Assembly: GCA_041485385.1 (NCBI GenBank)
Contig: JBGPJM010000001.1
Span: 421-64,420 of the forward strand
DNA length: 64,000 nucleotides
Source: Phycisphaerae bacterium
Lineage (GTDB): Bacteria; Planctomycetota; Phycisphaerae; Phycisphaerales; UBA1924
Reading direction: 5' to 3'
Position 1 is the stretch's first letter; each line of letters starts with the position of its first letter. Below the pieces are notes generated by a model, which saw nothing but the letters and a program-made list of their open reading frames with translations, was not told the DNA's origin and searched no databases. A program made the translations under genes and the position numbers. Positions 1,194 to 59,162 of the stretch are shown one piece after another.

Positions 1194-1243
1194 GATGGGC
1201 TCCTCGGGCTGCTGGGCAGTTTACCTGAGGAGGGTGGAGAGGA

Positions 1244-1298
1244 GTGAGCAGAAAGCAGTAGGCAGTGAGCAGAAGAGGGAGAGGGAGGGGACGAGGGG
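1244..1298. repeat. Short fragment homologous to the heptamer/G-rich block of the 1.15-kb element
   Basis: gtgagca gaaagca gtaggca gtgagca gaagagggagagggaggggacgagggg aligns with 11802-11880 (gtgagca gtaagca gtgagca ... gaagaggggag...gaggggacgagaaggg). Confidence 0.6.
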
Positions 1299-1521
1299 AT
1301 AGGAGAAGGCGAGGACTCCGGGCGAAAGCCCGGAGCCACAAACCAACGACCCCGGCTCATCCGGTGGGGGGAGTGAGCCGGGGCCGCCTGGGTGCGTTGA
1401 AGCCCGGTAGCGATCGGGAGCGGGAACAAACTCTCTCCGCATGCAGCGGATCAAGGCCCGCCCGGCGATCACCGGCCGCGCTTCAACCGATCTCATGAGG
1501 GTCAGCCCTGCGCGCGGGGCG

Positions 1522-9080: not shown

Positions 9081-10349
9081 ATGCTGAGCTGGTCCCTCAA
9101 GATCGGTTCCGTCCGCGGGATTCCCATCTTCATCCATTGGACCTTCCTGATCCTCATCGCCTGGATCATGGCCGGCCCGCTCCTGTCCGGCACGCCCGGC
9201 GCCGCGGCGGAGGGCCTCCGCAGCGCCGCGTTCGTCCTGGCCGTCTTCGCCTGCGTCGTCCTCCACGAGCTCGGGCACGCCCTGGCCGCGCGCCGTTTCG
9301 GCATCCGCACCATCGACATCACCCTCCTCCCCATCGGCGGCGTCGCGCGGCTGGAGAAGATGCCCGAGAAGCCGATGCAGGAGCTCATCGTCGCCCTGGC
9401 CGGGCCCGCCGTGAACGCCGTCATCGCCGCCCTCGTCGTTCCCGCGGTGCTGGCCACCGCGGGCGCCGAGGCCTTCACCGGCGCCGCGGCCATCGGCCAC
9501 CATCGCGCCCACTTCCTGGCCAGCCTCGGCGCCGTCAACGTCACCCTCCTCCTCTTCAACCTCATCCCGGCCTTCCCCATGGACGGCGGGCGCGTCCTGC
9601 GCGCCCTGCTCGCCATGAGCATGGGCCGGCCCAAGGCGACCCGCATCGCCGCGATCGTCGGGCAGGCCCTGGCCGTCGTCTTCGCGCTCCTGGGCTTGCT
9701 CAACGGGCACGTCCTGCTCATGCTCGTCGCCCTGTTCGTCTTCCTGGGAGCGGGCGCGGAGGCGCACGCGGAACAGTTCCGATCGGCTCTGCGCGGCCTG
9801 CCCGCCTCCGCGGCCATGATCACGCGCTTCGTCTGCCTGCGCGAGTCCGACACGCTCCGCAGGGCCGTGCAGGAGCTCCTTGCCGGCAGCCAGCAGGATT
9901 TCCCCGTGCTGGCCGACGGCGCCGGCGCCGCCGATGCCTCGGCCCTGGTCGGCGTCCTCACCCGCGCCGACCTGCTCCGCGCGCTCGCCGAGGGCATCGG
10001 CGCCGACCCCGCGGGCGACCAGCCGACGGTCGGCGCGATCATGCGCCGGCCGTGCCCGGTGGCCCTCGAGGATGAGGACCTCCAGGCCGCGCTGGATCGT
10101 GTCCGCGCGGAAGCACGCTGTGGGCCCGACGGCGCGCCCGCCGACGCCGCGGGCATCATGGGCTGCCCCGTCATCGCGGTGGTGCGCCGCGCGCCCGAGA
10201 TACCGCCCCGTGACGACCCGTCCGGGCGCGCCCAGGGGCGCCTCGTCGGCGTCCTGACCCCGGACAACGTCGTGGAGCTCGTGATGATCCGCTCCGCGTC
10301 GGAGCGCCGGCGCGATGCACGTGCCGTCACGGTCCCCGCTTCGCGATGA
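9081..10349 (+). CDS. Site-2 protease (peptidase M50) with C-terminal CBS pair
   Basis: Start at M76 of ORF 8856..10349 (MLSWSLKIGSVRGIPIFIHWTF). HExxH in VVLHELGHALAARRFG. LLFNLIPAFPMDGGRVLRA contains the M50 DG motif. C-terminal CBS-like segments. Confidence 0.88.
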   Translation: MLSWSLKIGSVRGIPIFIHWTFLILIAWIMAGPLLSGTPGAAAEGLRSAAFVLAVFACVVLHELGHALAARRFGIRTIDITLLPIGGVARLEKMPEKPMQELIVALAGPAVNAVIAALVVPAVLATAGAEAFTGAAAIGHHRAHFLASLGAVNVTLLLFNLIPAFPMDGGRVLRALLAMSMGRPKATRIAAIVGQALAVVFALLGLLNGHVLLMLVALFVFLGAGAEAHAEQFRSALRGLPASAAMITRFVCLRESDTLRRAVQELLAGSQQDFPVLADGAGAADASALVGVLTRADLLRALAEGIGADPAGDQPTVGAIMRRPCPVALEDEDLQAALDRVRAEARCGPDGAPADAAGIMGCPVIAVVRRAPEIPPRDDPSGRAQGRLVGVLTPDNVVELVMIRSASERRRDARAVTVPASR

Positions 10350-10363
10350 GACATTCCCCCGAC

Positions 10364-10384
10364 CCCCCATCCCACATCCCCCAT
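10364..10384. repeat. (CCCMCAT)x3 heptamer repeat
   Basis: cccccat cccacat cccccat. Its reverse complement ATGKGGG is the same word as in the palindrome at 53426-53455. Confidence 0.6.
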
Positions 10385-10704
10385 CACTCCCGCGCCCGCC
10401 TCCCCCTCTTCTTCTCGAACTCCGGCACCGCCACCCCCCGCTCCACCAGCAGCACCCGCCACGCCTCCCCGGCCGGCCCGCCTCGCTCGCTGAACCGCCC
10501 GCTCTCGGCCCGCTGAACCAGCGACAACAGATCCGTCGCCGAGAAGACCCACGTCCGCCCGCCGTGCGTCGGCCCGCTCACCCTCGCGGCCTTGCGGATC
10601 GTGTCGAACGTCTTGGCCGACAGCCCGCTGACATCCAGCAGCTCCTGCTTCGTCCAGCCCTCGGGCGCCTCGACAGGCGGCGATATATTCTGTCCACGTC
10701 CCAT
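10384..10704 (-). CDS. Hypothetical small protein (possible HTH DNA-binding)
   Basis: 106 aa from the internal ATG of ORF 10384..12090. MGRGQNISPPVEAPEGWTKQELLDVSGLSAKTFDTIRKAARVSGPTHGGRTWVFSATDLLSLVQRAESG has normal composition. The rest of the listed 568-aa ORF is read-through of the repeat element. Confidence 0.5.
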   Translation of the reverse strand: MGRGQNISPPVEAPEGWTKQELLDVSGLSAKTFDTIRKAARVSGPTHGGRTWVFSATDLLSLVQRAESGRFSERGGPAGEAWRVLLVERGVAVPEFEKKRGRRARE

Positions 10705-10761
10705 GCTCTGATCGTTGCACCCTTGCGGGCGTGGAAAGCGGAAAACAGGACGCCGGGACAC

Positions 10762-10840
10762 GGGGAAGGGGAGACTGGGGGACTGGGGGGACGGGGAGAC
10801 GGGGCGACGGGGAGATGGGGAGACGGGGAGATGGGGAGAC
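10762..10840. repeat. (GGGGAGAY)n G-tract array, 11 runs of four or more G in 79 nt
   Basis: ggggaaggggagactgggggactggggggacggggagacggggcgacggggagatggggagacggggagatggggagac, read directly from the sequence. Lies between divergent starts at 10704 (minus) and 10936 (plus). Confidence 0.85.
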
Positions 10841-10935
10841 GAAGGATGACGGTTCCCCCTTTCCGCATACGCCGCCCGCGCCCGCACAGCCCGGTACACT
10901 CCCCGCCCAACGCCTTCACCTCCCGGAGTCCCCGC

Positions 10936-11496
10936 ATGACCTGCCCGACCTTCCGTCTCCGCGCCCTCATCGCCGCCGTCTGCCTCGCCTCCATCGCCGG
11001 CGCCGTGATCGCGTTCCAGGCCGCGCAGCCCGAGCCGGCCTCGCCCGGTTCCAGGCAACCCTCCCCGCCCCCGCAGCCCGGCCAGCCAGGTGAACGCGGT
11101 CGCCCGGGCGGCCCCGGCGCCGAGGGCCGCCCGATCAGTATCGAGGGCGCGATGAAGACCATGAACGGCTCGCTCAGGCGCCTCAGGGGCCAGATCGCCG
11201 ACCCCGCCAAGAAAGTCGAGAACCTCCGCCTCATCAACGACATGCAACGCGGCTGCGTCATGGCCAAGGGCCAGCCCCTCCCGCCCGACCGCGTCGAAGA
11301 CGCCAAGGACGACGCGGCCAAGGCCAAGCTCAACGAAACCTTCCGCAGGGACCTCATGGCCGCGATGCGCACGCTCCTGGACATCGAACAGGACCTCATG
11401 GACGGCAAGGCCGACTCCGCCAAAGCACGCTTGGAGGAAGTCATCAAAGCCCGCGACGCCGCGCACAAAGAGTTCGGCGTCAAGGAAGACGAGTGA
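10936..11496 (+). CDS. Cytochrome b562-like four-helix-bundle protein with N-terminal signal/anchor
   Basis: Internal ATG of ORF 10315..11496. MTCPTFRLRALIAAVCLASIAGAVIAF, a Pro/Gly linker, then IEGAMKTMNGSLRRLRGQI ... EVIKARDAAHKEFG. This mirrors b562 (LEDNMETLNDNLKVIEK ... TTRNAYHQKYR), including candidate Met and His haem ligands. Confidence 0.6.
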   Translation: MTCPTFRLRALIAAVCLASIAGAVIAFQAAQPEPASPGSRQPSPPPQPGQPGERGRPGGPGAEGRPISIEGAMKTMNGSLRRLRGQIADPAKKVENLRLINDMQRGCVMAKGQPLPPDRVEDAKDDAAKAKLNETFRRDLMAAMRTLLDIEQDLMDGKADSAKARLEEVIKARDAAHKEFGVKEDE

Positions 11497-11557
11497 TCGG
11501 CAAGCGGTACGGCGCGCCCCCTCCTCTCCGTGCCCCCAGCGCCTCTGCGAGAGCCTC

Positions 11558-12728
11558 TGAGGTTCCGTGAGGTTCGGCGAGGTTCGGCGAGGTTTGGCGA
11601 GGTTTGGCGAGGTTTGGCATGGGTTTTTTGAGGTTCGATGGGGGTTTTCTGAGGTTCGGCGAGGTTTTTTGAGGTTTCGAGAGGTTTTTTGAGATTCATT
11701 TTCGGGGTGTTTTTGATGTAAGTTGTTGTAGCGTGGGGAGTTGTGTTGGTTCGAGGTGGCTTGGTTGGGTCGGGGGCTGAAAATGCATCGCTCGAAAAGA
11801 AGTGAGCAGTAAGCAGTGAGCAGTGAGCAGTGAGCAGAAGAGGGGAGAAGAGGGGCGTGGGGGAGAGGGGACGAGAAGGGTCGAGAGATGTTGAGAAGGG
11901 TCGAGAGTTTTTGAGAAAAGCAGAGAAGGGCGGGGAAGGGTCGAGAGAAGCAGGGCAGGGTTTTTGTGTAAGTGCTTGTGATATTGAGAGTTGTGATTTT
12001 TGAAGTGGTGTTTTTCGCGGCGAGGGGATTGAGTTTCTCGGGGTTTTTGGGTGATTTTTGAGGGTCGGCGCGGCGGCGTGATCGCTGCAAGTTGCTTTCT
12101 GCAAAGCACGTGTGTTGATGCCTGGCTGATTGGACGCGGTTCTGAAATTCGTGTGCTCCTGGGATGGGGAGGCGTTGAGGCGTGGGGGCGTGGAGGCGTT
12201 CAGACGTGGGGCGGGCGCGGAGCGTGCGCGCGACGTCTCTCTACCCATGGGCCGTCGGTCCTGTTTGCGCGCGCAGAATGGGAATCGGCGGGGGTCGAAT
12301 CGCGTAAGTGCTTGTGGCGCAAGGAGAAGAAAATTTTGAGGTTTGCGCTTTTGCGCGCGCCGGGCGCGCCTGTTCTGCGCGCGCAAACTGGCTCCACCGT
12401 TCAGGGGGGCTGGTTGCCGCGGTGGCCGCGGGTGCCCAGATGGCCGCGGGTGGGCGGGGTGGGGTGGTGTGATGCGCACAGCCTGCGACTTCCGTCGTGG
12501 AGATGACGACTCGCTGCGCATCGTGGCTCGTGGGGTGCGTCCGCGGTTGATTGGGGACCGGATGCGGGGCGGTGGCCGCGCTCCTCTCGAGAGGCAGAGG
12601 GCATAGCCCCGACCTCGACGCCCGCGCGATCGCGGACGCACCGGACGAGCCCCCGCGGACCGCGTCCCCGCGCTCCGCCCGCCCGCTGCGCGAGGCGGCT
12701 CGTCGGGTACGGTCCCCGCGAAATTCAG
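11558..12728 (+). repeat. Copy A of a ~1.15-kb non-coding G+T-skewed element
   Basis: Aligns end to end with 52257-53398 in the same orientation, with many substitutions and small indels. Contains (GAGGTTYGGC)x6 at 11559-11618, (GTGAGCA)x5 at 11802-11836, phased T-tracts and a conserved core at 12263-12388. No believable protein in any frame. Confidence 0.85.
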
Positions 12729-13051
12729 GGTGGGACCGGTGAACGGGGCGAGCCGTTCGGTTGGACCGCGAAGTGCGGCAAGAACAATTTCAGGAATCGC
12801 GCAAGGAAGCTGCCCGAGCACAGCACAGGCTTCCAGGACGCCGGCCCGCGCTCCTGCCGGCCCGCCGACGAGCTCCTCGCCACGAAGCACGCGGGCGCGG
12901 GCCGGACCAAGGGCGCGGCCTTCGGCCCGGCTCGCGAACCGGGCGAGCCCCTCAAGGCCGAGTGCCTGCGTCGGCGGGCGGCGGAAGCACCGCGACCTTT
13001 CGCCGCCGCCCCGCACTCCGGGCAGGGCTCTCCGCGCCGATGCCGCGGCGG

Positions 13052-15694
13052 TCAGGGGCAACCGGCGAAGAACGCCGGAAGGAAGTCGAAGAAGTCCTGA
13101 GCCGTGGTCATGCCGTCGGCGTTGAAGTCGGCGCGGCCGGCGAAGAACGCGTTCAGGAAGTCGAAGAAGTCCTGTGAGTTGGCGGAGCCGTCGTTGTTGA
13201 AGTCGGCGGGGCAGGGGCTGTTGGAGCAAGCGCCGGGCGTCGCGGCGGGCGTGAGGCTGAACGACCTGGGACTGGGAGGGAAGAGCGAGTCGGAGGGGAT
13301 CTGCAGGGTGTCAAGTCCCTGAGAGTCCTTCAGTCCGACGGTGACATCGGACGTGTCGCCTGGGAAACCGCTGAACGTGCTGCGGTCGTCGAGTTCGGCG
13401 TAGCGGAGTTCGATGCGGTTCGAGCTTTCGAAGAGCACGACCTGGAAGGTGTCCGTACCGTCAAACCAGCCGCCGGGCATGTGTTGCCATGAGGCGATGA
13501 ATCGGCGGGAGCCGGGGATGCCGTCGGTGCGGACATACATGGCACCGCCGATCGGATACAGATCATCCCAGAGGGCGAAGATGGCGTTGTTGGGCGGGGT
13601 GGAGTAGAACCGATTGGTGTTCTGGGCCACGCCCAGCGGCTGGTTGCCGAAGGCGAGATAGCCGTTGTCGCCGATGCCGATGCTGGTGTAGCGGCGGCCG
13701 TAGAACTCAAACTCAAAGCCGATGTCGACGGATCGACCGGTGTTGTTGGCCAGCACGATCGGAGTGCCATCGGCGGAAATATCTTCAAAGGGTGCATCGG
13801 CCTCGGCTTGTGTGTAGGCGGCGCTGGGGCAGACGGTGTTCTCGCCGGAGAATCGGCCGAACTGGGCGGCGCAGTCGGCGGCGGTGGTCAGCGAGCAGCC
13901 GTTCTGCGTGCAGCAGGCGCCCAGTGGCTGCGAATCGATCGTCAGGATGTAGCGTGTGGGTAGCGCGCAGGGCCAGTCCCAGAAGAGACCCGAGTTGTTG
14001 CCGGAATCCGGGAAGACGAGCACGCCGAAACGCCCGGCGGGCAGTGTGAATGAAAGGCTGGCAGGGCCGGCGCAGCGAGTGAGTTCCAAATCGTTGGCGA
14101 TCACCTCGGCCGGGCAGGTGTCGGACATCAGCAGGACGCGCACGGGGAACTCGGCGGTCACGTTGATCGTGACGAAGGCGGGGTGGTCGAGCGTGCAACG
14201 GTACCAGTCGAAGTCGCGTCTGCCGCCGTTGGCATAACTGGAACCCCAGACAGTGATGTTGGGCGAGGGCAGGTCCTGGAAGAGCGGCGGGTCGCCTGGG
14301 GCGTAACCCCTGCAGCCGTAGTTGTTCTGCTGGCCGCATAATTCGGGCTCGATGAATGCGCCGGCGGGCTGGGTGAGGCAGGGGAGGATCGGCGCCGAGG
14401 TGCTGAGGGTAAGGGTGCCGGTGCCGGAGTCGCCGCCATCGCCGGCGATGCGAACAAGGTAACTGCGCCCGGCGATCGCGTTGAACCGGGCATCCATGCG
14501 GCCTCCGCAACTGATCCCGTTGATGAAGCGAAGGACCGATCGGGAGCAGACGAGTTCCGTGTCGGTGGCCTGGTCGATCACCGACATGACGCCGTCGTAG
14601 AGATACCCCCCGCCAGTTGCGCAGGAGACGAGAGTGACGAGGTTGTCGACCGACGCCTGATAGACGAACCAAATGTCATTGGCAGTGAACCCGCCGCCGC
14701 CGTCGCAGGTGGACGAGCCGTCCGTGAGCGCCCCGCGGGTGGTGAACGGGTTGGCACCTTCAACCAGCGGGGCGGCGTTGGCTCGCAGATCGTTGGGCGG
14801 CGGCTGGACGATCGTGACGGACAACTCGCCCATGTAGCCGTTTGGAAGGGGAACGCCTTCTGAATGGCCCGCCGTGCTCGACGCTACGCGGAGAAGCACG
14901 ACTTGGCCAATGGTGACGGGCAAGGAAAGCGAAGCCTGCGATGCGCACGCGAACGGGGATGAGCCGCACGAGTCGAACGCGGCAGTCGTCCATCCGCCGC
15001 TCACTATCGCAACACCGGACGCGGCGGCCGTGTACCTGAACCAAACATCCCTCACGCCGCCAAAGGTATCCGAACCGCAGGGAGCACTGATCTCGGTGGC
15101 CGCGGCGAGGCTGCTGAAGGCAAGGGGTGTGTCGGCGAAGAGGTCGATCGCATCGACGCACACGTCATTAGCGGGCGGAGGCAGCATCGTAATCGTGAAG
15201 GTGCCGATGACGGAAGATGGACCGACCGGGCCGTTCGTAGGTCCGCCGATGCGGATGAGGATGCTCTGGCCTTCGGAAACGTTGACGTACACCTGCGAGA
15301 TGACACAGAATGGGTTGGAGGAACCATCGTCGCCGACGGGATCGCACGCCAGTTCCGTGCCGCCGCAGGATGACTGGACAGTCAGTGTTGCAGCGTTGTA
15401 CCAATAGTCAGGCTCGAATGGGGTGCTGCAGGCGACGATCCAGGCCGCTCCCGCCGAGGGGGCGGTGAAACTGAACCAGACGTCTCCGCGAACGTCGCCG
15501 CCGGGGCTGTTGGCGGCAACGCACGGCCAGGGATCGGCGCTGCGCGTGGCGGTGGTGGTGTCGAACGCCTCCTCGGTGTCGATCACGACGGGAATCGCAC
15601 CCGAACACTCGTCGTTGGCGGGTTGCGCCCGCACCGACGTCTCGATGAATAGCAGGGACGCACACCCAACAAGGACGGAGCAACAACATCGCAT
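13052..15694 (-). CDS. Large secreted protein with PxNDxC-initiated modules and a C-terminal double dockerin-like (GC-type) tag
   Basis: ORF 13052..15742. Probable start is M17 (MRCCCSVLVGCASLLFIETSVRAQ, signal peptide). At least three modules begin PANDEC / PPANDVC / PPPNDLR. A NIDO-like IGDNGYLAFGN segment follows. The C-terminus is [53 protein letters not shown]. Confidence 0.85.
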   Translation of the reverse strand: MRCCCSVLVGCASLLFIETSVRAQPANDECSGAIPVVIDTEEAFDTTTATRSADPWPCVAANSPGGDVRGDVWFSFTAPSAGAAWIVACSTPFEPDYWYNAATLTVQSSCGGTELACDPVGDDGSSNPFCVISQVYVNVSEGQSILIRIGGPTNGPVGPSSVIGTFTITMLPPPANDVCVDAIDLFADTPLAFSSLAAATEISAPCGSDTFGGVRDVWFRYTAAASGVAIVSGGWTTAAFDSCGSSPFACASQASLSLPVTIGQVVLLRVASSTAGHSEGVPLPNGYMGELSVTIVQPPPNDLRANAAPLVEGANPFTTRGALTDGSSTCDGGGGFTANDIWFVYQASVDNLVTLVSCATGGGYLYDGVMSVIDQATDTELVCSRSVLRFINGISCGGRMDARFNAIAGRSYLVRIAGDGGDSGTGTLTLSTSAPILPCLTQPAGAFIEPELCGQQNNYGCRGYAPGDPPLFQDLPSPNITVWGSSYANGGRRDFDWYRCTLDHPAFVTINVTAEFPVRVLLMSDTCPAEVIANDLELTRCAGPASLSFTLPAGRFGVLVFPDSGNNSGLFWDWPCALPTRYILTIDSQPLGACCTQNGCSLTTAADCAAQFGRFSGENTVCPSAAYTQAEADAPFEDISADGTPIVLANNTGRSVDIGFEFEFYGRRYTSIGIGDNGYLAFGNQPLGVAQNTNRFYSTPPNNAIFALWDDLYPIGGAMYVRTDGIPGSRRFIASWQHMPGGWFDGTDTFQVVLFESSNRIELRYAELDDRSTFSGFPGDTSDVTVGLKDSQGLDTLQIPSDSLFPPSPRSFSLTPAATPGACSNSPCPADFNNDGSANSQDFFDFLNAFFAGRADFNADGMTTAQDFFDFLPAFFAGCP

Positions 15695-15698
15695 CGTT

Positions 15699-15760
15699 TG
15701 ACTTGGCATTCTGTTCACCTCACGAAAAAGCCGACATGACACGCGTGTCCCCGCCCGGCT
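15699..15760 (-). promoter_or_regulatory. Conserved 62-nt leader/promoter box, copy 1
   Basis: Almost identical to 17117-17179. Gene-sense sequence is AGCCGGGCGGGGACACGCGTGTCATGTCGGCTTTTTCGTGAGGTGAACAGAATGCCAAGTCAA. Contains the perfect 12-bp palindrome GACACGCGTGTC (15738-15749). Confidence 0.6.
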
Positions 15761-15819: not shown

Positions 15820-17028
15820 CTACGGGCAGGGAGCGAAGAACGCACCGAGGAAGTCGAAGAAATCCTGGGAGTTGATGATCGAGTCGTGGTTGAAGTCGGC
15901 GCTCGGGTTACCGGCAAAGAAGGCGGCGAGGAAGTCGAAGAAGTCGCCTGAGTTCGCGATGCCGTCTTGGTTGAAATCCGCCGCGCAGAAGAGCGGCCGC
16001 GTCCAGAGCAGGGCTTCGGTGTAACCCGTCAGCGAGTTGGTGCCGAAGCCCGCGACATAGAGGTTCGTGCCATCGCTGGAAAGCCCCGATGCTCGACTCT
16101 CCGTGAACCCGGCGGGGAGGAAAACGTGGAGATCGACCCAGGAGTCCGCCGTGCCGCTCCACAGGCTGGCGTGGGCCGCGCCGCCCACAAATGCACTCCC
16201 CGCCTGCTGCCCGCCGCTGATGGCAATGGCGTAGGAACTGGTCAAGCCCGCCGGGCCGAGACTGACCCACGAGTCCGCCGTGCCGCTCCACAGGCTGGCG
16301 ACGGTCACGCTGCCGCCGTCCCAGGCATACCCCACCTGCTGCCCGCCGCTGCCGCCAAAGACTTCGGACCACACCGCGCCCGCCGGGTTGAGATCGACCC
16401 ACGAGTCCGCCGTCCCGCTCCACAGGCTGGCGTGGTAATCGGCAAAGTCGCCCACAGCGGCATACCCCGCCTGCCGCCCGCCGCTGGCGACCCGGGCCAT
16501 GGACTCGTATTCGCCCGCCGGGTGGAGATCGACCCACGAGGCCGCCGTCCCGCTCCACAGGCTGGCGCGGTACTGGTCATCCACAGAGACATACCCCACC
16601 TGCTGCCCGTCGCCGACGCCAAGGGCTTCGGACTCCGGCGATCCCGCCGGGTTGAGATCGACCCACGAGGCCGCCGTGCCGCTCCACAGGCTAGCGCGGA
16701 CCGCGCCGTCCACAATGGCAACCCCCACCTGCTGCCCGCCGCTGGCCGCGGTGGCAAAGGACAACGCCGAGCCGGCCGGGTTGAGATCGACCCACGAGGC
16801 CGCCGTGCCGCTCCACAGGCTGGCGCGGTACACGCCGCCCACGGTGGCACCTCCCGCCTGCTGACCGCCGCTGGCGGCACGGGCATCGCAGTGCGTCGAG
16901 CCCGCCGGGTTAAGTCTGGCCACGGTCCACTGGGCGTGGGCCGTTGAGGCGAGCATGACACTCGCGAGCGCAGGCAGCGCTGCCATGATGGTGTTTCGGA
17001 TGGTATTTCGAATGTATGTCACGTTCAT
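15820..17028 (-). CDS. Secreted HAF-like repeat protein with C-terminal double dockerin-like tag
   Basis: ORF 15820..17064. I prefer the ATG at 17028 (MNVTYIRNTIRNTIMAALPALASVMLASTAHA), preceded by GGAGGAG. About eight repeats of ...GGQQ(V/A)G...ASLWSGTA(A/D)SWVDLNPAG.... C-terminus is [55 protein letters not shown]. Confidence 0.85.
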   Translation of the reverse strand: MNVTYIRNTIRNTIMAALPALASVMLASTAHAQWTVARLNPAGSTHCDARAASGGQQAGGATVGGVYRASLWSGTAASWVDLNPAGSALSFATAASGGQQVGVAIVDGAVRASLWSGTAASWVDLNPAGSPESEALGVGDGQQVGYVSVDDQYRASLWSGTAASWVDLHPAGEYESMARVASGGRQAGYAAVGDFADYHASLWSGTADSWVDLNPAGAVWSEVFGGSGGQQVGYAWDGGSVTVASLWSGTADSWVSLGPAGLTSSYAIAISGGQQAGSAFVGGAAHASLWSGTADSWVDLHVFLPAGFTESRASGLSSDGTNLYVAGFGTNSLTGYTEALLWTRPLFCAADFNQDGIANSGDFFDFLAAFFAGNPSADFNHDSIINSQDFFDFLGAFFAPCP

Positions 17029-17116
17029 TACTCCTCCAGGCTTGTTGTTCCGTCCCGGGACCATGCCATTTTCTCGCGATCAACTGCCGAGGTGTCGCAC
17101 AATCGCGCTCTTGCGC

Positions 17117-17460: not shown

Positions 17461-20400
17461 TCACGGCATCGGCAACTTGGACCGCCACTGGGCGGCCTTG
17501 AGGGCGTGTCCCTGCTCCGGGTCGGACCGGTCCCAAGCTTCGTAGAACGCGGCGAGGCGCTCGATGGAGGCGTTGAGCTGCGGGCTGGCGGGCGGGGCAT
17601 CGCCGGCGTCGGCTGGGGGCGCCAACCGTTCGCACGCTTCGACGAGCAGGGCCTCGGCCTGGGGCATCTCGGCTCGGGCCGTGCGATACTCGGCGAGGTT
17701 GAACAGATCGCGGGTGATATCCGGATGGCTGCGCGGCTGGAGGCGTCGGCGCATGCCCAGAGCTTCCTCGAATTGGGCCAGGGCCAGCTCGTCCTTCCCG
17801 AGAGCCCGGAGACAACCCGCCACACCCGCGAGGCTCTGGGCCGTGTCCACCTGATCTCCGGGCGCGATTCGCCGGCGCATCGCCAGGGCCTGCTCGTATC
17901 GGCCCAGGGCCTCCGCCGGTTCTCTCATCGATTCGTAGCAGGCGCCGATGTGTTCGAGAGTCGATGCGGCGTCGGCGCTGTCGGGGCTGGCGAGGTGCTG
18001 GAAGATCTCGAGGGCATGCTCGTGTGCCTCGATCGCCTTCGACGGGTTCTTAAGTTTCGTCAGACAGTCGGCCATCCGGTTGGTCATCTGGGCCGTGTGG
18101 ATGCGGTAGGGCTCGCCGAGACGTTGGGCGATGTCGCGTGCCTCGGTGAATCGGTCGAGCGCGTCCTGGAAGTGTTCGAGGGACAGCAGGCACAAGGCGG
18201 TGTTCATCAGGTCGTAGGAGATGTTGATGTGGTCGCCGTCGTAGTAGCCGCGCCAGAACGTCAGCGCCTGGTCGTACTTGTCGAACCCATCCTGGAAGCT
18301 GCCCATGCCCTGGAAGCAGTAGCCCATGCAGTCGAATGTCGCGGCTTCCCGCTCGCTCCTGCCGGGCCAGGCGCGGTGGCACAACTCCAGGGCGGTCCGG
18401 TACTTGGCCATCGCGTCGTCCCGCCGGTTGAACGCCTCGAGGGTTCTGCCAAGTTCGAAGAGGCTTGTGATCGCGGCGCGAGGGTCCTGCTCGACCAGGC
18501 GTGCCCGCATCGCCGCGCCGGCCTCGAGGCTCTCGATCGCCTTGTCTTCGCGACCCAGGCGCCTGTAGACGGCGCCGAGCTCTGTCAAGCCTTCTGCAAC
18601 CCATGGATCATCTCCGGGGCGTGCGCTCTTGCGCCTGGCCAACTCCTGCTGCATCATGAGCAGCGCCTCGTCGGGGCTGCCCAGTGCGATGAGGCTTCTG
18701 GACTCCTGGTGCAGCATCAACGTGGTGTTCAGGCTGGGACCGGGACAGAAGAGCTGTTGCATGCAGCGGGCGGCGTGCGACGTTGCCAGGGACTCGTCGT
18801 ATTGACGATTGCTCCACAGGCAGATCGCTTGATTGGAGAGCGCTGCCGCGAGGTTCAGGTTTCCACCCGGGAACAGACGATGGAACATGGAAACGGCCAC
18901 TTCGTACTCGACCAGCGCGTCGGCTGTTCGCGTGAGATCTTTGAGGCAGTCGGCCACGACCCTATGGCCCTGCGCGACAGCCGCGTGATCCCCGGGGTGG
19001 AGGCGTTGCGCCATCGCGAGAGCCTCGCTGTAGAGCGGAAGCGCCTGGTTGGGCGGGACGCACCAGCCGATGGCTTCCAGACTCTTCACGATGCGATCAT
19101 CGTCGCCTGTGCATTCGCGCCGTCGGATCTCGAGCGAGCGCCGCAGCAGCGGGAGCGCCTCACCGGACATCTCGCGGGAACGGAGCACGAGGCCCAGCTC
19201 GTACATCACGCCGGCGGCCTCCAAACTTCCGGGACCATCGCCGGCGCTGGCGAGCTCCAGAGCCCGGCGGAGCATCCGGTCGGACCTCTCCCACTCGGCG
19301 ATGCCCCGGTACACGCTGCCGATCATGAACCGGAGCCGCCATTCTTCCTCCGGCGCCGCGGAGAGTTCCCCGGCATCAATGCGGGCGGCGGCGGCGTCCA
19401 TCATCTCCTGCAACATCCTGGTGTCGCGCCCGAGAGCCACCGACGGGCCGACGCCGGCAAACACCTCCCCCATGAACTGCCCGACCCCTTCGGCGCGGTG
19501 ACGCGCGGCCGCCTCCTTGACGAGCGCCGCCTCTTTGGCGTCGTTCTTGTATTTCGCCTGCACGAGGCCGTACGTCGCCAGCCCCAGCCCCAGCACCAGC
19601 GCGCCAAGCACCGCGGAACCCGCGAGGAAGACGCCGAGGTTCCGCCGCACCAGCTTTCCCAGCCGGTACACGGTGCTGGGAGGGCCGGCCAGCACCGGCT
19701 CGTCGCACAGGTACCGCTGCACCTCCATCGCCAGACCGTTGGCCGTCTCGTAGCGGCGGGTGCGGTCCTTCTCCAGGCACTTCATCACGATCCAGTCCAG
19801 CTCGCCGCGCACCAGCCTGCCGATCCTTGAAGGCTCCGTCCGGCGATTCGTCGCCACCCGCGCGAGCGCATCTCCCAACGTGCTCAGGCGCGTGCTGGGA
19901 GTAGGTGGCTCCTCCTCCCGGATCATCCGCTGCATCTCCGCCCACGCCGCGGAACGGAGCCGCTTGGGGTCCAGCGGCGTCGTCCCGGTGAGCAGTTCGT
20001 ACAACAGCACTCCCAGGCTGAAGATGTCGCTGCGCGTGTCGATGTCCACGCCGGTCATCTCCGCCTGCTCCGGGCTCATGTACTCGGGCGTGCCGATGAG
20101 CTGGCGGTGCTCGGTGAAGAGCGTCTTCTCCGTGAGGCGTGCGGAGGTCGCCTTGGCGATCCCGAAGTCGATCACCTTCGGGATCGGCTTGCCGTCGGAC
20201 ACGGTTACCAGCACGTTGCCCGGCTTGATGTCCCGGTGGATGACCCCTTTCTGGTGCGAGTGCTGCACGGCGTTGCACACCTGCGCGAACAGCTCCAGGC
20301 GCTCGCGGGTGCTGAGGCTGTTCGTATCGCAATACTCCGTCACCGGCTCTCCGCGCACCAGCTCCATCACGAAATAGGGGCGCCCCGTAGGCGTCGCTCC

Positions 20401-20877
20401 GGCATCAAGAACCCTGGCAATATTCGGGTGGTCCATGAGGGCCAGGGCCTGGCGCTCCTGCTCGAAGCGGGCGACGACCTGCCCGGTGTCCATCCCCAGC
20501 TTGATGATCTTCAGCGCCACCCGCCGCCGTACGGGCTGCTCCTGTTCCGCCAGGAAAACGGCTCCGAAGCCGCCCTCCCCGATGAGCTGGAGCAGCTTGT
20601 AGGGTCCGATCCGGGCGCCGGGCCCCTCTCTGAGCGGCCCCATGGCGGTCGACGTCGACAGCTCGGATCCTTCACCAGCCGGCAGCGCGTTCCCCGCCGT
20701 CGGCGAGGCCATGAAGTCTCCCGCCCTTGCCCCGGCCGCCAGCAACCCCAGCACGCGCTGCAGGAGTTCGGCGTCGTTCGCGCACTCGGCGCGCACAAAC
20801 GCCTCTCTCGCCCCCGGCGGTTGCTCCATCGCCTCGCCGAAGATCCGCTCCATTTGCCGCAGCTTGGTCCCGGCCAT
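17461..20877 (-). CDS. Ser/Thr protein kinase with transmembrane helix and long TPR domain
   Basis: 1138 aa. Kinase motifs [34 protein letters not shown] and SPEQ. One TM helix ([23 protein letters not shown]), then about 700 aa of TPR-like repeats. Confidence 0.92.
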
Positions 20878-20887
20878 GGCCGCCCTT

Positions 20888-21502
20888 CTAGGACTCCCCC
20901 GCGTCGCGCTCGGCGCCCTCCTGGTCTCCCAACTCCTGGAACAGCAACGCCCGCGCGAACGCCCACCGCCGCTTCACCGTCGCCGGCGACAACCCAAGCG
21001 CCGCCGCGGTCGTTTCCACGTCCAGGCCGGCATAGAACCGCAGCCGTACCACCCATGCCAGCTCGGTGTCCTGCATCTCCAGGCGACGCACCGCCTCGTC
21101 GAGGCTCAGGATCGCGTCGGAATCCAGCTCCGCGGCCAGGTCCACCACACACAACGGCACGCGACGCGCCGGGGATCCATGACTGTCGCCGCCCCGTTTC
21201 ATCCGCCCGCGCGCTCGCGCATGCTCGATCAGGATTCGGCGCATCGCCTCGGCGGCGGCCGTGTAAAAATGAGCCCTGCCCGACCACTGGGGCTCGCCGC
21301 CGCCGACCAGGCGCAGATAGGCCTCGTGGACCAGCGCGGTGGCCTGCAGCGTGTGGCCCGCACGCTCCTGCGCCATCCGCTCCTGGGCAATGGCACGGAG
21401 CTGACCATACACGAGCGGGAGAAGGTCGGCTGCGGCCTGGACATCACCCCCCGCGACCCGTTGCAGCAGCCGCGTTGCCGGTGTAGTTGAGTTCCCGGGC
21501 AT
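20888..21502 (-). CDS. ECF-type RNA polymerase sigma factor (PF07638 / ECF43-like)
   Basis: 204 aa. [41 protein letters not shown]...[20 protein letters not shown] is the hallmark N-terminal region of this family. Lies 10 nt upstream of the kinase gene. Confidence 0.9.
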
Positions 21503-48886: not shown

Positions 48887-51565
48887 TCATGGTGTAACGC
48901 GGCCCCGCCATTCGGTCGCGGAGGTGGTGTCGCCCCGGGCCTCGAAGTGCTTGACGATGCGCTCGGCGGCCCGCCGGCGGCGGTCGTCCGGGGTCTGCGG
49001 GCTGGCCTTCATGATGGTGTAGCCGTCGATGAGCAGGGGCTGGGCGTCGTCGAAGCGCCCCTGCATCGAGAGGCACGCCCCCAGCAGGTTCATCGACGAG
49101 CCGATGAGCCAGTGACCGGCCGGGAGCTTCTCGCGCCGGATGTCGAGGGACTCGCGGAGGAGCGGCTCGGCCTCGGCGGCGCGGCCGAGCTCGAGCAGGT
49201 CCCACCCGAGGTTGGCCTGGCTGCGGGCGATGTCCGGATGATCCGGCTCCAGCAGCGCGCGGTTCATCTCGAGCGCCTCGCGGAAGAGCGGCTCGGCCTT
49301 CGCGGCGTCGCCGCGCTCCAGGTAAAGACCGGCGAGGCTGTTGGCGGCCTTGGCGACGTCCGGGTGCGGCGTCCCCAGCAGCGTCCGCGTCATCTCCAGC
49401 GACTGAAGCAAGAGCGGCTCGGCCTGGCGGAACTTGCCCTGGGCGACCAGGAGAAGACCGAGGTTGTTGAGCGCGCCGGCAAGGTCGGCGGTGGGCGCCT
49501 GCTTGAGATCGCGGATGATGCGCAGCGACTCGGTGTACAGCATCTGCGCCTCGTCGAGGTTGTCCCGCTCGACGAGGATGAGCGCGAGGTTGTTGATCGC
49601 CGCGGCGACGAATCCATCGGTCGGCGGGCGCGTGCGCCGGCTGAGCTCGACATCCTCCCGCGCCAGCGCCTCGGCCTGGTCGAGTTTGCCCTCGAGCCGG
49701 TAGACGGTAGAGAGACTCTCGAGGGTGGCGGACACGTCGGCCGGGTCCTCTTCGGGAAGGGACCGGCGGAGGATGAGGGCCGCGGTGAGGTGCTTCTCGG
49801 CCTCGGGGTAGCGTCCGAGGGACTGATAGGTACGGCCGATGGTCGTGCGGACGTCGGCCTCGATCTGGGGCTGGTTGCGCAGGGAGCCGGCCTCGACCTT
49901 GGCCGCGGCGGCGTCGAGGGCGTCGCCGATGGTGGTGTCCTTGCCGCGCGTGTTCGCCGGGTCGGCCGCGCCGAGGACCTCCTGCATGAAATCGTTGGCG
50001 GCGCGGGCGCGGGCGGTCTGCAACGTGGCGGCCTGCGTCTGGAGGTCGGCGATGTGGTGCTGGGTCGCCTCGGCCTCGCGCGCCCGGTTGGCCTGGCCCA
50101 GCGCGATGGTGGTGCCGATCAGCCCCAGCACGAGGGCCGCGGTCACCAGCCCCGCGCCCACGAGCAGGGCCCGGTTGCGGCGCGCGAACTTCGTCAGCCG
50201 GTACGAGACACTCGGCGGGCCGGCGAGGACCGGCTCGTGCCGAAGGTGGCGCCGGACATCTTCGGCCAGGTCGAGGGCGGAGGCGTAGCGGCGCGTCCGG
50301 TCCTTCTCCATGGCCTTCATGGTGATCCAGTCCAGGTCGCCGCGCAGCGAGCGCGCGAGCGTGGACGGGCTGGCGCCGCGCTGGCGGGCGATCAGGTCCG
50401 GGGATGCGCCCGGGGCGGGCTGGGGCTGCGCCGGGGGCCCGGGGGGGGCGGGGGACGCGGGGGGCGGAGAGGAGAGGCCGCTGAGGCGGGTGCTGGGGCG
50501 CGGCGGCTCGGAGTCGCGGAGGATGCGCTGGATCTCGGCGAAGCCGGCGAAGCGGAAGGTGCGGGGATCAAAGGGGGGAGAACCGGTGAGCAGCTCATAA
50601 AGGAGCACTCCCAGGGAGTAGACGTCGGAGCGCGTGTCGATGTCCTGGCCGGAGAGACCGGCCTGCTCGGGGGACATGTAGGCGGGGGTGCCGATGATCT
50701 GGCCGTGCTCGGTCAGGCCGGTCTCTTCGAGGGCGCGGCTGCTGACGGCCTTGGCGACGCCGAAGTCGATGACCTTGGGAACGGCTCGCCCCCACGCCCC
50801 CCCCACTCCCGACGCCCCTGATCCGCCGTCGCGCTCGACGGCCTCGATCAGGACGTTCCCCGGCTTGAGGTCGCGATGGATAACGCCCTTCTGGTGCGCG
50901 TGCTGCACGGCCTCGCAGACCTGGATAAACAGCTCGAGGCGCTGGCGGACGCTCAGACGCCGCTGGTCGCAGTACAGGGTGATGGGCGGCCCGTGGACGT
51001 ACTCCATCGCGAAATACGGGCGCCCTCGGGGTGTGGCGCCGGCGTCGAAGACGCGCGCGACCGAGGGGTGCTCCATCACGGCCAGCGCCTGGCGCTCGGC
51101 GCGGAATCGCTCGATGACGTGCCGCGTGTCCATCCCGAGCTTGATGACTTTGAGAGCGACCTTGCGCCGGATGGGCTCGGACTGCTCGGCAAGGTAGACG
51201 GTGCCCATGCCGCCGGCGCCGATGGTGGAGAGGATGCGGTAGGGGCCGATCATCGTGCCGGGAGGGTCGTCGGTGAGGATGTCGACGCTGGAGTCCGCGC
51301 CCCCTCCCTGGCCCCGGCCACCCCCACCTCCCCGATCCGCGCCCCGATCCCCCCCACTCCTATCAACCACCGCCGGGACCTGCATGAACTGCTGGTCGGC
51401 GTCGTGCTCGCGCAGGAGCGACTCGATCTCGCGACGCAGGGCGCTGTCGGGGCCACACAGGGCGTCGAGGCAGGCTGGCCGCTCGGCGGGCGCGAGGGCG
51501 GCCGCCGCGGCGAAGATCCGTTCGGTGCGACCGTGTTCGGGCATGGAGGGAGACTGGGTGGGCAT
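48887..51565 (-). CDS. Ser/Thr protein kinase with TM helix and TPR domain (paralogue 2)
   Basis: Real start is M225 of ORF 48887..52237 (MPTQSPSMPEHGRTERIF...). IGAGGMGTVYLA, VALKVI, HRDLKPGNVLI, DFGVA and SPEQ motifs. TM helix ALLVGAGLVTAALVLGLIGTTIAL, then TPR repeats. The ATG overlaps the sigma stop by 1 nt. Confidence 0.92.
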   Translation of the reverse strand: MPTQSPSMPEHGRTERIFAAAAALAPAERPACLDALCGPDSALRREIESLLREHDADQQFMQVPAVVDRSGGDRGADRGGGGGRGQGGGADSSVDILTDDPPGTMIGPYRILSTIGAGGMGTVYLAEQSEPIRRKVALKVIKLGMDTRHVIERFRAERQALAVMEHPSVARVFDAGATPRGRPYFAMEYVHGPPITLYCDQRRLSVRQRLELFIQVCEAVQHAHQKGVIHRDLKPGNVLIEAVERDGGSGASGVGGAWGRAVPKVIDFGVAKAVSSRALEETGLTEHGQIIGTPAYMSPEQAGLSGQDIDTRSDVYSLGVLLYELLTGSPPFDPRTFRFAGFAEIQRILRDSEPPRPSTRLSGLSSPPPASPAPPGPPAQPQPAPGASPDLIARQRGASPSTLARSLRGDLDWITMKAMEKDRTRRYASALDLAEDVRRHLRHEPVLAGPPSVSYRLTKFARRNRALLVGAGLVTAALVLGLIGTTIALGQANRAREAEATQHHIADLQTQAATLQTARARAANDFMQEVLGAADPANTRGKDTTIGDALDAAAAKVEAGSLRNQPQIEADVRTTIGRTYQSLGRYPEAEKHLTAALILRRSLPEEDPADVSATLESLSTVYRLEGKLDQAEALAREDVELSRRTRPPTDGFVAAAINNLALILVERDNLDEAQMLYTESLRIIRDLKQAPTADLAGALNNLGLLLVAQGKFRQAEPLLLQSLEMTRTLLGTPHPDVAKAANSLAGLYLERGDAAKAEPLFREALEMNRALLEPDHPDIARSQANLGWDLLELGRAAEAEPLLRESLDIRREKLPAGHWLIGSSMNLLGACLSMQGRFDDAQPLLIDGYTIMKASPQTPDDRRRRAAERIVKHFEARGDTTSATEWRGRVTP

Positions 51566-52167
51566 CAGGAATCTTCGGGGTCGCCGTCGCCCTGGAGCTT
51601 GCGGACCTCGCGCCTGAGCCAGGCGCGGGCGTAGGTCCACTCGGTCTTTACAGTAGTAAGGGAGAGTCCCAGCGCGGCGGCGGTCTGTTCGATGCTGAGG
51701 CCGGCGAAGTAGCGGAGGTGGACGATCTCGGCCTTGCGCGGGTCGCGGGCCTCGAGGAGCTTGAGGGCCTCGTCGAGGGAGATGAGGTCCTCGGGGGTCT
51801 GGGTATCGCCGACGGCCTCCACATCCCAATCGACGCGCTGCCGCCCGCCGCCGTGCTTGAGGCGGGCGCGGCGACGGGCGCGCTCGACGAGGATGCGTCG
51901 CATGGCCAGGGCGGCGGCGCCGTAGAAGTGGCCGCGGGAGCGCCACTGGGCGTTGGGATCGGCGACGAGGCGGAGGTAGGCCTCGTGGACGAGCGCGGTG
52001 GGCTGGAGGGTGTGGCCGGAGGATTCGCGCGCGAACTGGTTGCGGGCGAGGCGGCGGAGCTCGGCGTAGACCAAGGGCAGGAGCTGCTCGGGCGCAGTGG
52101 GATCGCCGCCGGCGGCGCTGACCAGCAATCGAGTGACGTCCTGGTGTGCGGTTGAGGAGGTCGGCAT
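51565..52167 (-). CDS. ECF-type sigma factor (PF07638 / ECF43-like), paralogue 2
   Basis: The last 200 aa of ORF 51565..53433 starting [68 protein letters not shown]. The upstream 422 codons are read-through of the repeat element. Confidence 0.9.
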   Translation of the reverse strand: MPTSSTAHQDVTRLLVSAAGGDPTAPEQLLPLVYAELRRLARNQFARESSGHTLQPTALVHEAYLRLVADPNAQWRSRGHFYGAAALAMRRILVERARRRARLKHGGGRQRVDWDVEAVGDTQTPEDLISLDEALKLLEARDPRKAEIVHLRYFAGLSIEQTAAALGLSLTTVKTEWTYARAWLRREVRKLQGDGDPEDS

Positions 52168-52216
52168 GGTGTGCTGGGGGCTGGCGCGACGGGGGCGACG
52201 GGAGACTGATGACCAA

Positions 52217-52248
52217 TGTCCGCTGTCCATTGTCCACTGTCCACTGTC
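52217..52248. repeat. (TGTCCRY)n heptamer array
   Basis: tgtccgc tgtccat tgtccac tgtccac tgtc, 50-80 nt upstream of the sigma start codon. Confidence 0.75.
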
Positions 52249-52256
52249 GGGGCTCG

Positions 52257-53398
52257 GAGGTTTCGTGAGGTTCGGCGAGGTTATTTGAGGTTCGGGGTGG
52301 GTTTTTTGAGGTTCGATGGGGGTTTTTTGAGGTTCGGCGAGGTTTTTTGAGGTTTTTGGGGGTTTTTTGAGGTTCGTTTTGGGGGTGTTTTTGATGTAAG
52401 TTGTTGTGGCGTAGTGAGTTATGTCTGTTAGCGGTTGCTTGGTTCGGGGTGGGACCTGAAATGCATCTCTCGAAGAGAAGTAAGCAGTGAGCAGAGAGCA
52501 GTAAGCAGTGAGCAGAAGAGAAGACGGGCGTGGGGGGACAGGGGACGAGAAGGGTCGAGAGATTTCGAGAAAGGTCGAGAGTTTTTGAGAAAAGCAGAGA
52601 AGGGCGGGGAAGGGTCGAGAAAAGCAGGGCAAGTTTTTCATGTAAGTGCTTGTGTTATCGATAGTTGTGACCTTTGATGGGGTGTTTTTCGCGAAGAGGG
52701 GGGGGGTCGGTTTCTCGGGGTTTTTGGGTGGTTTTTGAGGGTCGGCGCGGCGGCGGCGTCGCTGCAAGTGGCTTTCTGCAAAGCACTTGCGTTGAGGCTC
52801 GGCTGATGGGGTGCGAGTCTGAAATTCGGGTGCTCCTGGGCAGGGTTTCGGACCGGACGTTCGCCCCCCCTCCCGTCGGGCGCAGCGTGCGCGCGACGTC
52901 CCTCTACCTATGGGCCATCGGCCCTGTTTGCGCGCGCAGAATGGGAAATCGGCGGGGGTCGAATCGCGTAAGTGCTTGTGGCGCAAGGAGAAGAAAATTG
53001 TGAGGTTTGCGCTTTTGCGCGCGCCGGGCGCGCCTGTTCTGCGCGCGCAAGCGCGCTCCACCGTTCGGGGGAGTTGGTTGCCGCGGTGGCCGCGGGTGCC
53101 CAGATCGCCGCGGTGCGTGTGACGATGCGCTGCCCGCCCCCCGATCGTTCGCCCACCCCTCGCTCGCGCGTCGGGTTCGTCAGGCGTCCGCGGTGATCGG
53201 GGACCGGATGCGGGGCGGCGGCCGCACTCCTCTCGATCGGCGGGAGACGTATCCCGAATCTCGGCGCCCGAGCGATCGCGGGCGCACCTGACGAGCCACT
53301 CAGGCGGCGTCCCCCGTCCCCGCGTCCCTCCGTCGGCGCACGCTCCCCCCCGCCCGCTGCGCGAGGCGGCTCGTTGGAACGATCCCCGCGAGTTCAGC
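52257..53398 (+). repeat. Copy B of the ~1.15-kb non-coding G+T-skewed element
   Basis: Collinear with 11558-12728: same tandem words, the same GTAAGTGCTTGTG boxes, and the same core at 52926-53052. Confidence 0.85.
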
Positions 53399-57590: not shown

Positions 57591-59162
57591 ATGCACGCTC
57601 GAACCTTCGCCGTCGGCCTTTCCCTGGCCCTGCTGGCCTCCACCGGGAGGGCCCAGGTCGTCATCAACGAGGTCTTCTCCAATCCCCCGGGGGTCGGCAA
57701 CGACCCGCGCTACGAGTACCTCGAGCTCTTCGGTGAACCGGGCACGGACCTAACCGGGTTTGTGATCGTGGCCGTCTTCGGCGGGGGCGACTCCAACGCC
57801 AACAACATCCCCGGGCCGTTGCCGTCGTCCTGGAACCCGGGCGATGATCTGCCCGAGATCAACGGGGCGTGGAGCCTGGACGGCCTGGCGCTGGGCTCGA
57901 ACGGGCTGCTGGTGCTGTACAACAACACGCTCAACAACAGCGCGATCCCGGCGCTCCTGCCGCCGGCGACCAGCCGGGCGACTTTCACGGCGACGCACAT
58001 CCAGCTCGCCGGCGTGCCGGCGGCCGGCGACATCCGCAACAACGGGTCGCAGACCTACATGCTGCTCCGCCGACGTCCGTTCCATTCGATCGTGGGCGGG
58101 GTGAGCGTGTACGGCGCGGGGTATGCCTGGGCCAAGGGGACCGACCCGGACGTGGACTTCGACAGCCGGATCGACTTCAACGGCGTCGGCCTTCTGCCCG
58201 GGGGGCTGCCTCCGCCACCGGAGATGCCGGTGAACTCGGAGACGTCGGGCGAGCCACCCACGCCCGGCCCGCGCACCCTGGAGCCCTACCAGATGGTGGA
58301 TGAGATCGCCAACTCGGACGGGCGCGGCAAGGAGTACACGCGCTCGACCGAACAGAAGATCTCCGACACCCACGGGGAGAACCCCGACGCCCTGTGCCGC
58401 ATCAACTTTTTCGGCGCCAACCCGAACCGCGGCTGGCGCTTCGACACGACCGGCACACTGGTACGGACCAGGATGGGGGACGAGGAGTTTATCTACGGCG
58501 AGATCCTGGGCGTCCCGGCCATGGACTTCGACCCGATCATCTCCGGCGGCCCGACCGACCCGGCCGGCCCTCGCTACAACATGTTCGGGCAGCCCGATCC
58601 CAACGGTACGTACCTGTTCGACGACCTCAGCCGCGTGGGATATCACCTGACGCCCGGCAGCATGAACGACGTTGACTCGCGCGGGGTGGGCGGGGCCAAC
58701 ATCGTCGAGTTCCGTTTCGTCCGCGGCGACTTCAACTTCGACGGCGTGGTGAACGCCGACGACGATGCGCTGATCACCGGGCGCGTCGGCGCCACCATGG
58801 ACGACCTTGGCCCTTCCACGGACACCAACGGCACGCCGGACCCATCGGACGACATCACGATCACCAACGCCTGGCGATGGCAGGGGCGGGACCTCGAGGC
58901 GATCATGGCGATGCGCAACATGAACAAGACCGACGGACCGGGGGGGACCAACGCCCCCGACGTCACCGCGGCCGACCTCGCCGCGTTCCACGCGCTCAAC
59001 TGCCCCGCCGACTGGAACCACTCCGGCGCGGTGAACAGCCAGGACTTCTTCGACTTCCTGGGTTCGTTCTTCGCGGGAAACGCCGATTTCAACCATTCGG
59101 GAACGACCAACAGCCAGGACTTCTTCGATTTCCTCACCGCGTTTTTCGCCGGCTGCCCATGA
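57591..59162 (+). CDS. Secreted LTD-like domain protein with C-terminal double dockerin-like tag
   Basis: M20 of ORF 57534..59162 ([22 protein letters not shown]). [26 protein letters not shown] is lamin-tail-domain-like. C-terminus is [53 protein letters not shown]. Confidence 0.85.

Follow-up and report, generated by a model that had tools for sequence, protein, structure and literature searches.

The DNA analysed here, a stretch of 64,000 nucleotides from a Phycisphaerae bacterium which is referred to as the window, contains two copies of a non-coding repeat of about 1.15 kb. Best preserved within this repeat is a block of 126 nucleotides that is bracketed by a perfect inverted repeat of 16 bp. 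This block, in the following called the core, is a real, unclassified and weakly characterised lineage-specific element. It may represent a selectively maintained hairpin-forming module of the lineage-specific non-coding element surrounding it. As a tentative interpretation, which we regard as possible rather than probable, the core would be a three-way-junction domain of a plus-strand RNA that is closed by a 20-bp helix of the RNase III type. The coordinates of the features discussed are collected in Table 1.

Table 1. Features of the repeat and of its core, in coordinates of the window
Feature	Position	Strand	Remarks
Repeat, copy A	11579-12721	+	80.5% identical to 52257-53391 (blastn)
Repeat, copy B	52257-53391	+	Same orientation as copy A
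C-poor left half	11559-12060	+	Built from minisatellites: 10/20-nt array of GAGGTTCGGC / TTTTTTGAGGTT, GAGCAGT heptads, GAGAAGGGTCGAGAG units, G-quadruplex-type run at 11842-11870
Partial third copy	1239-1306	+	Restricted to the module of GA-rich heptads and G-runs; a minus-strand gene (3-1193) has its start 45 nt downstream
Box 1, degenerate GTAAGTTGTTGTA	11718-11730	+	Copy B at 52396-52408
Box 2, identical GTAAGTGCTTGTG	11968-11980	+	336 nt upstream of box 3; copy B at 52642-52654
Wider conserved island around the core	12212-12449	+	Flanks 88-90% identical; three GCCGCGG palindromes at 12416-12449
Core, copy A	12263-12388	+	Near-invariant block of 126 nt
Core, copy B	52926-53052	+	127 nt; three differences from copy A
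Left arm, GTTTGCGCGCGCAGAA	12263-12278		Helix predicted on the plus strand runs on to 12282
Short predicted hairpin, UCGGC-GGGG-GUCGA	12285-12298	+	From the region of the GAATCG direct repeat
Box 3, GTAAGTGCTTGTG	12304-12316	+	Next comes GGCGCAAGG, the pairing partner of UUUGCGCU (12341-12348)
Third TTTGCGCGCGC copy with overlapping palindrome GCGCGCC-G-GGCGCGC (12355-12369)	12350-12369		Can pair with either arm
Right arm, TTCTGCGCGCGCAAAC	12373-12388		Extended helix begins at 12369
Second long-range inverted repeat, GGTGCGTCCGCG (12534-12545) / CGCGGACGCACC (12631-12642)	12534-12642	+	9 of 12 pairs kept in copy B

The repeat and its genomic context

The two copies of the repeat, A and B, lie in direct orientation on one replicon, at a distance of 40.7 kb from each other. 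Over the 1172 columns of their alignment they are 78.5% identical if gaps are counted. Within the repeat no period-3 GC signal indicative of coding was detected, many of the indels between A and B are not multiples of three, and a six-frame query with the conserved island around the core retrieved no protein homologue.

Two convergent genes have their 3' ends on either side of copy A, namely 10315-11496 on the plus strand, whose product of 393 aa has a weak cytochrome b562-like match, and 13052-15742 on the minus strand, which encodes a GC-type dockerin protein. Copy B lies between two divergent genes, one for an ECF sigma factor (52167 to 51565, minus; TIGR02999 / PF07638), which is followed by a gene for a Ser/Thr kinase with TPR repeats, and one for an ABC transporter (53739-55613, plus). 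Since the neighbours of A and B are unrelated, the element itself is the duplicated, self-contained unit rather than a part of a duplicated operon. The window genes covered by the Pfam scans (about 47 of about 50 ORFs) have housekeeping or signalling functions; genes for a transposase, an integrase or a reverse transcriptase were not detected in this set. An interpretation of the 40.7-kb interval as a mobile island was rejected, as it holds genes for EPSP synthase, FabF, FtsH, a BamD-like protein and succinate dehydrogenase subunits.

Several further repeats were observed in the window. Five CCACTGT heptads (52213-52248) lie between the start codon of the ECF sigma gene (52167) and the left end of copy B, and read on the opposite strand they are similar to the GAGCAGT heptads of the element. 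A gene for an ECF sigma factor of the TIGR02999/PF07638 type, followed by one for a TPR Ser/Thr kinase, occurs in two paralogous pairs in the window (17461-21502 and 48887-52167), only the second of which has the repeat element upstream. Six tandem units of 129 nt, or three of 258 nt with 76% matches, occupy 16129-16911 within a 414-aa ORF (15820-17064, minus) that has no Pfam match. At 13052-13214 and 59000-59162 two C-terminal GC-type dockerin domains (NF041540) are encoded in opposite orientation, which share 75% DNA identity and belong to otherwise different proteins. The octamer GGGAGACG is repeated eleven times at 10755-10841 inside the coding region 10315-11496, where a period of 8 nt is unusual for a gene.

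The repeat itself consists of two dissimilar halves. Its left half of about 480 nt (52257-52740 in copy B) contains only 8.5% C and 42% G in both copies. Selection against C is not supported as the cause, because C/T and A/G differences occur at about the same frequency per site; the C-free minisatellite units account for the skew. Canonical G-quadruplex motifs with four runs of at least three G are present in the GA-rich module at 11842-11870, 52526-52550 and 1277-1300. A minus-strand transcript of the left half would be C-rich, almost free of G and nearly unstructured, with minimum free energies (MFE) of -59 to -89 kcal/mol compared to -171 to -196 kcal/mol for the plus strand. This composition is as expected of a Rho-utilisation site, and in copy A the stretch is directed towards the convergent gene 13052-15742. 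In the GC-rich right half, conserved segments alternate with spacers that cannot be aligned. Three paralogous boxes of the form GTAAGT(TG/GC)TTGT(A/G) are found on one strand of copy A and again in copy B. Only box 3 lies inside the core, and boxes 1 and 2 are preceded by a T-tract and followed by GAGTTGTG or a sequence close to it (GAGTTATG, TAGTTGTG).

Conservation of the core

Where the earlier note had counted about three differences between the two cores, direct alignment yields exactly three, namely a 1-nt indel after position 12282 (GGGAATCGG vs GGGAAATCGG), a T/G exchange at 12336 and an A/G exchange at 12387 in the right arm, with the G in copy B. The longest stretch of the A/B alignment with at most three differences extends over 133 columns (12255-12386), and the next ones over 81 (11866-11946) and 62 columns (11616-11677). 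When the mismatch positions were permuted, the longest stretch of this kind averaged 47 columns and was at most 90 columns long; a length of 133 was reached in none of 5000 permutations. On the left the conserved block stops no more than 4 nt from the arm, and on the right its limit coincides with the arm. The claim of the same note that the block is selectively conserved within a drifting repeat has to be qualified, since identity is still 88-90% on both sides of the core and other well-kept islands exist elsewhere in the repeat. Overall, conservation that is selective, or at least non-uniform, is supported statistically.

A similar picture could arise from a recent gene-conversion tract between A and B that has no function of its own. 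The mosaic identity profile with its several high-identity islands and the presence of the copies as direct repeats on one replicon would agree with such an event. However, the other islands coincide with sequence features as well, such as paired segments and boxes, and conversion alone is insufficient as an explanation because the tract ends coincide with the ends of the inverted repeat. We therefore consider it very unlikely.

Arms and internal motifs of the core

The arms are complementary at 16 of 16 positions and thus form the perfect inverted repeat that had been described before. With a spacer of up to 200 nt, no longer perfect inverted repeat exists in the 64-kb window, the runner-up having 14 nt. 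The ten central bases of the 16 in each arm constitute the self-complementary sequence TGCGCGCGCA; as a consequence the arms are also direct repeats, and purely inverted symmetry is restricted to the 3+3 flanking bases. The other internal features reported earlier, i.e. the palindrome GCGCGCC-G-GGCGCGC, the GAATCG direct repeat (at 12282 and 12297) and the GTAAGTGCTTGTG box, were all located in the core. In addition, a third copy of TTTGCGCGCGC at 12350-12360 could form alternative helices of 11-12 bp with the left or the right arm, and TTGCGC half-sites are present at 12318 and 12343. The conserved flank contains a cluster of other palindromic hexamers (CGATCG and three times GCCGCGG).

This accumulation of palindromes might have its basis at the DNA level. 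The core would then be a cluster of candidate sites for a dimeric DNA-binding protein recognising the palindrome TGCGCGCGCA or TTTGCGCGCGC, with two full sites in inverted orientation (the arms), one at 12350 and the two TTGCGC half-sites. The inverted repeat would be a by-product of site orientation, or else a segment prone to cruciform or Z-DNA formation, with a role in regulation or recombination. Such a cluster explains the multiplicity of the motifs as well as an RNA structure does: all four occurrences of TGCGCGCGCA in the window and six of its ten GCGCGCGC octamers fall inside the two cores, and the arm motif is found in both orientations and at least three times per core. Furthermore, a perfect GC-rich stem of 16-20 bp that is mostly self-complementary (CG)n is equally characteristic of DNA palindromes and of RNA. 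The continuation of palindromic hexamers into the conserved flank points in the same direction, as do the three GTAAGTNNTTGTG boxes on the same strand, which together with their T-tracts resemble repeated recognition or promoter-like units. On the other hand, the neighbours of A and B differ and no gene for a DNA-binding protein is consistently adjacent, the entire 94-nt interior is conserved and not only the motifs, and the tolerated A to G exchange in the arm suits wobble pairing better than a strict operator. We regard recognition at the DNA level as a real possibility, though on balance a doubtful one.

The arms and the size of the core also recall bacterial MITE-type intergenic repeats. 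ERIC, Correia/NEMIS and RUP elements are about 100-160 bp long, have terminal inverted repeats and form a long hairpin if transcribed. The core shares with them the size range, the terminal inverted repeats, the intergenic location and the potential to form a long hairpin. It could accordingly be pictured as a miniature element of 126 bp with 16-bp terminal inverted repeats which is nested in the larger repeat and looks younger, having arrived or been homogenised later. Terminal inverted repeats bounding a segment of 50-500 bp, as in MITEs, are indeed present, and here they delimit the block of high identity. In contrast to the known families, however, both cores are embedded at one fixed position of the 1.15-kb repeat, and neither dispersed solitary copies nor a cognate transposase were seen in the window. 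A target-site duplication is likewise missing, as the sequences flanking the core (GGTCCT / TGGCTC in A, GGCCCT / GCGCTC in B) share no direct repeat. Matches to the 16-mer arm in viral contigs, nine in number, all lack the second arm and are attributed to chance. The absence of transposase, integrase and reverse transcriptase genes from the ORFs scanned with Pfam also speaks against a mobile element, so that this origin appears rather unlikely to us.

Two further types of palindromic element were compared. REP/BIME are mosaic elements of proteobacteria, and REP families comprise hundreds of dispersed copies. The 1.15-kb element resembles them as an intergenic mosaic of GC-rich palindromic units and linkers that can also be found between convergent genes, but its palindromic unit is confined to two elements within 64 kb. 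Integron attC sites, which are defined by a 5' RYYYAAC and a 3' GTTRRRY motif and by cassette arrays beside intI, were rejected as a match, because the core ends, 5'-GTTTGCG...CGCAAAC-3', show the opposite arrangement and no integrase was found in about 47 of about 50 ORFs by Pfam.

Predicted structure of a plus-strand transcript

We prefer the reading as a plus-strand three-way junction because all three differences between A and B fit this fold. The core would most likely act within a plus-strand transcript, in which the arms are predicted to form a closing helix of 20 bp made up of the 16 Watson-Crick pairs, a U-G, a G-U and two G-C pairs. The four additional pairs, two of them wobble pairs, are gained on the plus strand in both copies, and U-G and G-U exist on this strand only. 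The closing helix would enclose a three-way junction from which a short hairpin with a GGGG loop and a long imperfect hairpin emerge, the latter with an A/U-rich apical loop bearing AAGGAG and UUUUGAGGUU. Alternative pairings may be permitted by the third GCGCGCGC segment.

In the plus-strand consensus fold the indel is placed in the junction, the U/G exchange in the apical loop and the U-G pair in the closing helix, and all three are neutral. As the earlier note had pointed out, the exchange at 12387 converts a U-A into a U-G pair on the plus strand and would result in C-A on the minus strand. Three neutral differences are nevertheless not significant, since random substitutions, too, would be neutral in the core fold in about 39% of cases, and transitions in 70%. 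In the single-sequence MFE structure of copy A, position 12336 is part of a weak AAA/UUU mini-helix, which the T/G exchange would break.

The folding energy of the core was compared with that of shuffled sequences, which gave z = -3.3. For the two-copy consensus of core and flanks z was -2.1 on the plus and -0.5 on the minus strand, whereas for the right part of the element the consensus fold gave -1.9 on the minus and -0.06 on the plus strand; the strand signal of these z-scores is thus not consistent. The consensus fold of core and flanks, which comprises two sequences, contains no double changes, and all four one-sided changes are compatible with it, one of them in the closing stem. In single-sequence folds, substitutions were not enriched at unpaired positions and most of the changed pairs were broken. 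The lack of a consistently favoured strand and of loop enrichment is in favour of the protein-binding sites in DNA considered above. In the GC-rich half, 12537-12549 pairs with 12627-12639 and 12644-12651 with about 12703-12710, across variable and indel-rich spacers, and one-sided changes in these pairings remain compatible with wobble pairing on the plus strand. One pair of the second long-range inverted repeat that is kept in copy B likewise changes from U-A to U-G.

With regard to transcription signals, no sigma-70-type promoter was detected in either copy, and no sigma-54 promoter. Neither copy contains a convincing intrinsic terminator: there is no T-run after the right arm, and the scan was empty at the core. 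The motif GGAAT(C)-N17-CGTAAG (12281-12308), however, presumably resembles the promoters of ECF sigma factors, and nine nt after AAGGAG (12321-12326) there is a TTG, or GTG in copy B. A promoter of the ECF type embedded in the core, together with a short leader or a micro-ORF, could be considered. Its spacing and both hexamer-like motifs are identical in A and B, the start codon survives the T/G exchange at 12336, and copy B adjoins an ECF sigma gene. Such a promoter would, however, point away from this gene, and no ECF gene is near copy A. The micro-ORF would encode 56 aa in A and 43 aa in B, its substitutions are distributed 3:2:2 over the codon positions, it has no homologue, and the core contains a frame-breaking indel of 1 nt. 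Retention of the start codon carries little weight, as about two thirds of the substitutions at 12336 would have this effect. For these reasons we consider an embedded promoter highly improbable.

Returning to the three-way junction, its closing helix invites comparison with processing stalks. RNase III cuts substrates of this kind, perfect helices with a length of about 20 bp, and stalks processed by this enzyme occur in rRNA precursors and in some sRNA precursors. From the length of the helix we infer that the core may be excised from a longer precursor, or that it may serve as a rigid platform for protein binding. Similar to RNase III stalks, a near-perfect helix of about 20 bp would bracket a discrete RNA segment in the core; unlike in the known stalks, the 86 nt enclosed match no known RNA in Rfam.

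A more far-reaching proposal would extend the RNA interpretation to the complete 1.15-kb element. According to this proposal it would be a new long non-coding RNA gene specific to a lineage of Phycisphaerae-like Planctomycetota. Its C-poor 5' half, with about eight U-rich/GAGG repeats resembling ribosome-binding sites and with its G-quadruplex runs, would function as a protein or ribosome sponge, and the core would be a three-way-junction domain that is released or anchored by the 20-bp RNase III-type helix. We rate this proposal as distinctly unlikely.

Search for relatives and known families

Rfam 15 gave no match at gathering thresholds for the whole window, so that the core is not a member of a known family. 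Over 11400-13000 four matches at chance level, each of at most 19 bits, were obtained at E<=10. The best sub-threshold match was to the c-di-GMP-II-GCG riboswitch (RF03170) at 12349-12388 on the minus strand, with 18.7 bits and E = 4. The resemblance is limited to a GC-rich hairpin; the gathering score of this family is 47.9 and 50 of the 85 model positions are replaced by a 5-nt insert, and the core is thus not a member. ARAGORN detected no tRNA or tmRNA genes in the window.

Relatives of the core were sought with the exact 19-mer GTAAGTGCTTGTGGCGCAA, which comprises box 3 and the start of the inner hairpin. The 19-mer was found at 5 loci in GTDB genomes and 9 in JGI metagenomes, none of which contains a homologue of the element. 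One of these loci lies 440 nt upstream of a 16S gene, another in a 27-nt palindrome behind a sigma-54-like promoter, and one on a low-GC (32%) contig without long ORFs nearby. An interpretation of the 19-mer as a motif common to Planctomycetota, Gemmatimonadota, Verrucomicrobiota and low-GC contigs was rejected. The loci are attributed to chance, because the number of distinct matches is near the estimate of about four for a 19-mer in 596 Gb and their flanks are not significantly similar. Two of them are weak exceptions. At L002 1283-1317, in a Planctomycetales MAG and identical in L013, 35 nt show 89% identity to 12292-12326; this is the sole external match with flank similarity near significance (p ~0.02, uncorrected). 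The other, L005, has an exact match of 24 nt.

Some properties of these loci deserve mention independently of the core. The L002 stretch, GGGG-CGAA-GCGTAAGTGCTTGTGGCGCAA-GAG, is located 67 nt upstream of a gene whose product was judged by eye to be a transposase or an integrase. Low-GC freshwater metagenome contigs (L011 1290-1450 and 1790-1900; L006 230-400) contain a repeated unit of about 130 nt, in which a sigma-54-like TTGGCACGAATCTTGCT precedes the 27-nt palindrome GTAAGTGCTTG-N6-CAAsGACTTAC and a GC hairpin. This unit adjoins genes for small repeat proteins and is unrelated to the planctomycete element except for the chance match to the 19-mer.

Viral contigs contained no match to the 19-mer or to its palindromic variant, and BLAST searches of plasmids and phages with the whole element returned only low-complexity heptad matches. 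The nearest homologues of the ABC transporter encoded beside copy B are 54-57% identical, the closest 57%, and the named matches are from Planctomycetes or Phycisphaerales; at the syntenic loci of these nearest homologues the element is absent. A covariance model built from the two cores and applied to the window and 15 loci recovered the two cores only, and a solitary core is present nowhere else in the 64-kb window. Across the collections scanned, the family is known from two copies only.

Conclusion

The element described here belongs to no described family. Its kind is a familiar one, that of an intergenic repeat which is specific to a lineage and contains a conserved hairpin module. The intergenic regions of Planctomycetota are long, but as far as we know the non-coding elements characterised in this phylum are few. 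In its current state, with two copies from one uncultured genome, the core is a lead and not a discovery, and its main value is that of a seed for further searches. A discrete non-coding unit of this kind, present in more than one copy and containing a hairpin module under strong conservation, would be a candidate structured RNA or DNA recognition element of a new type in a poorly studied phylum.
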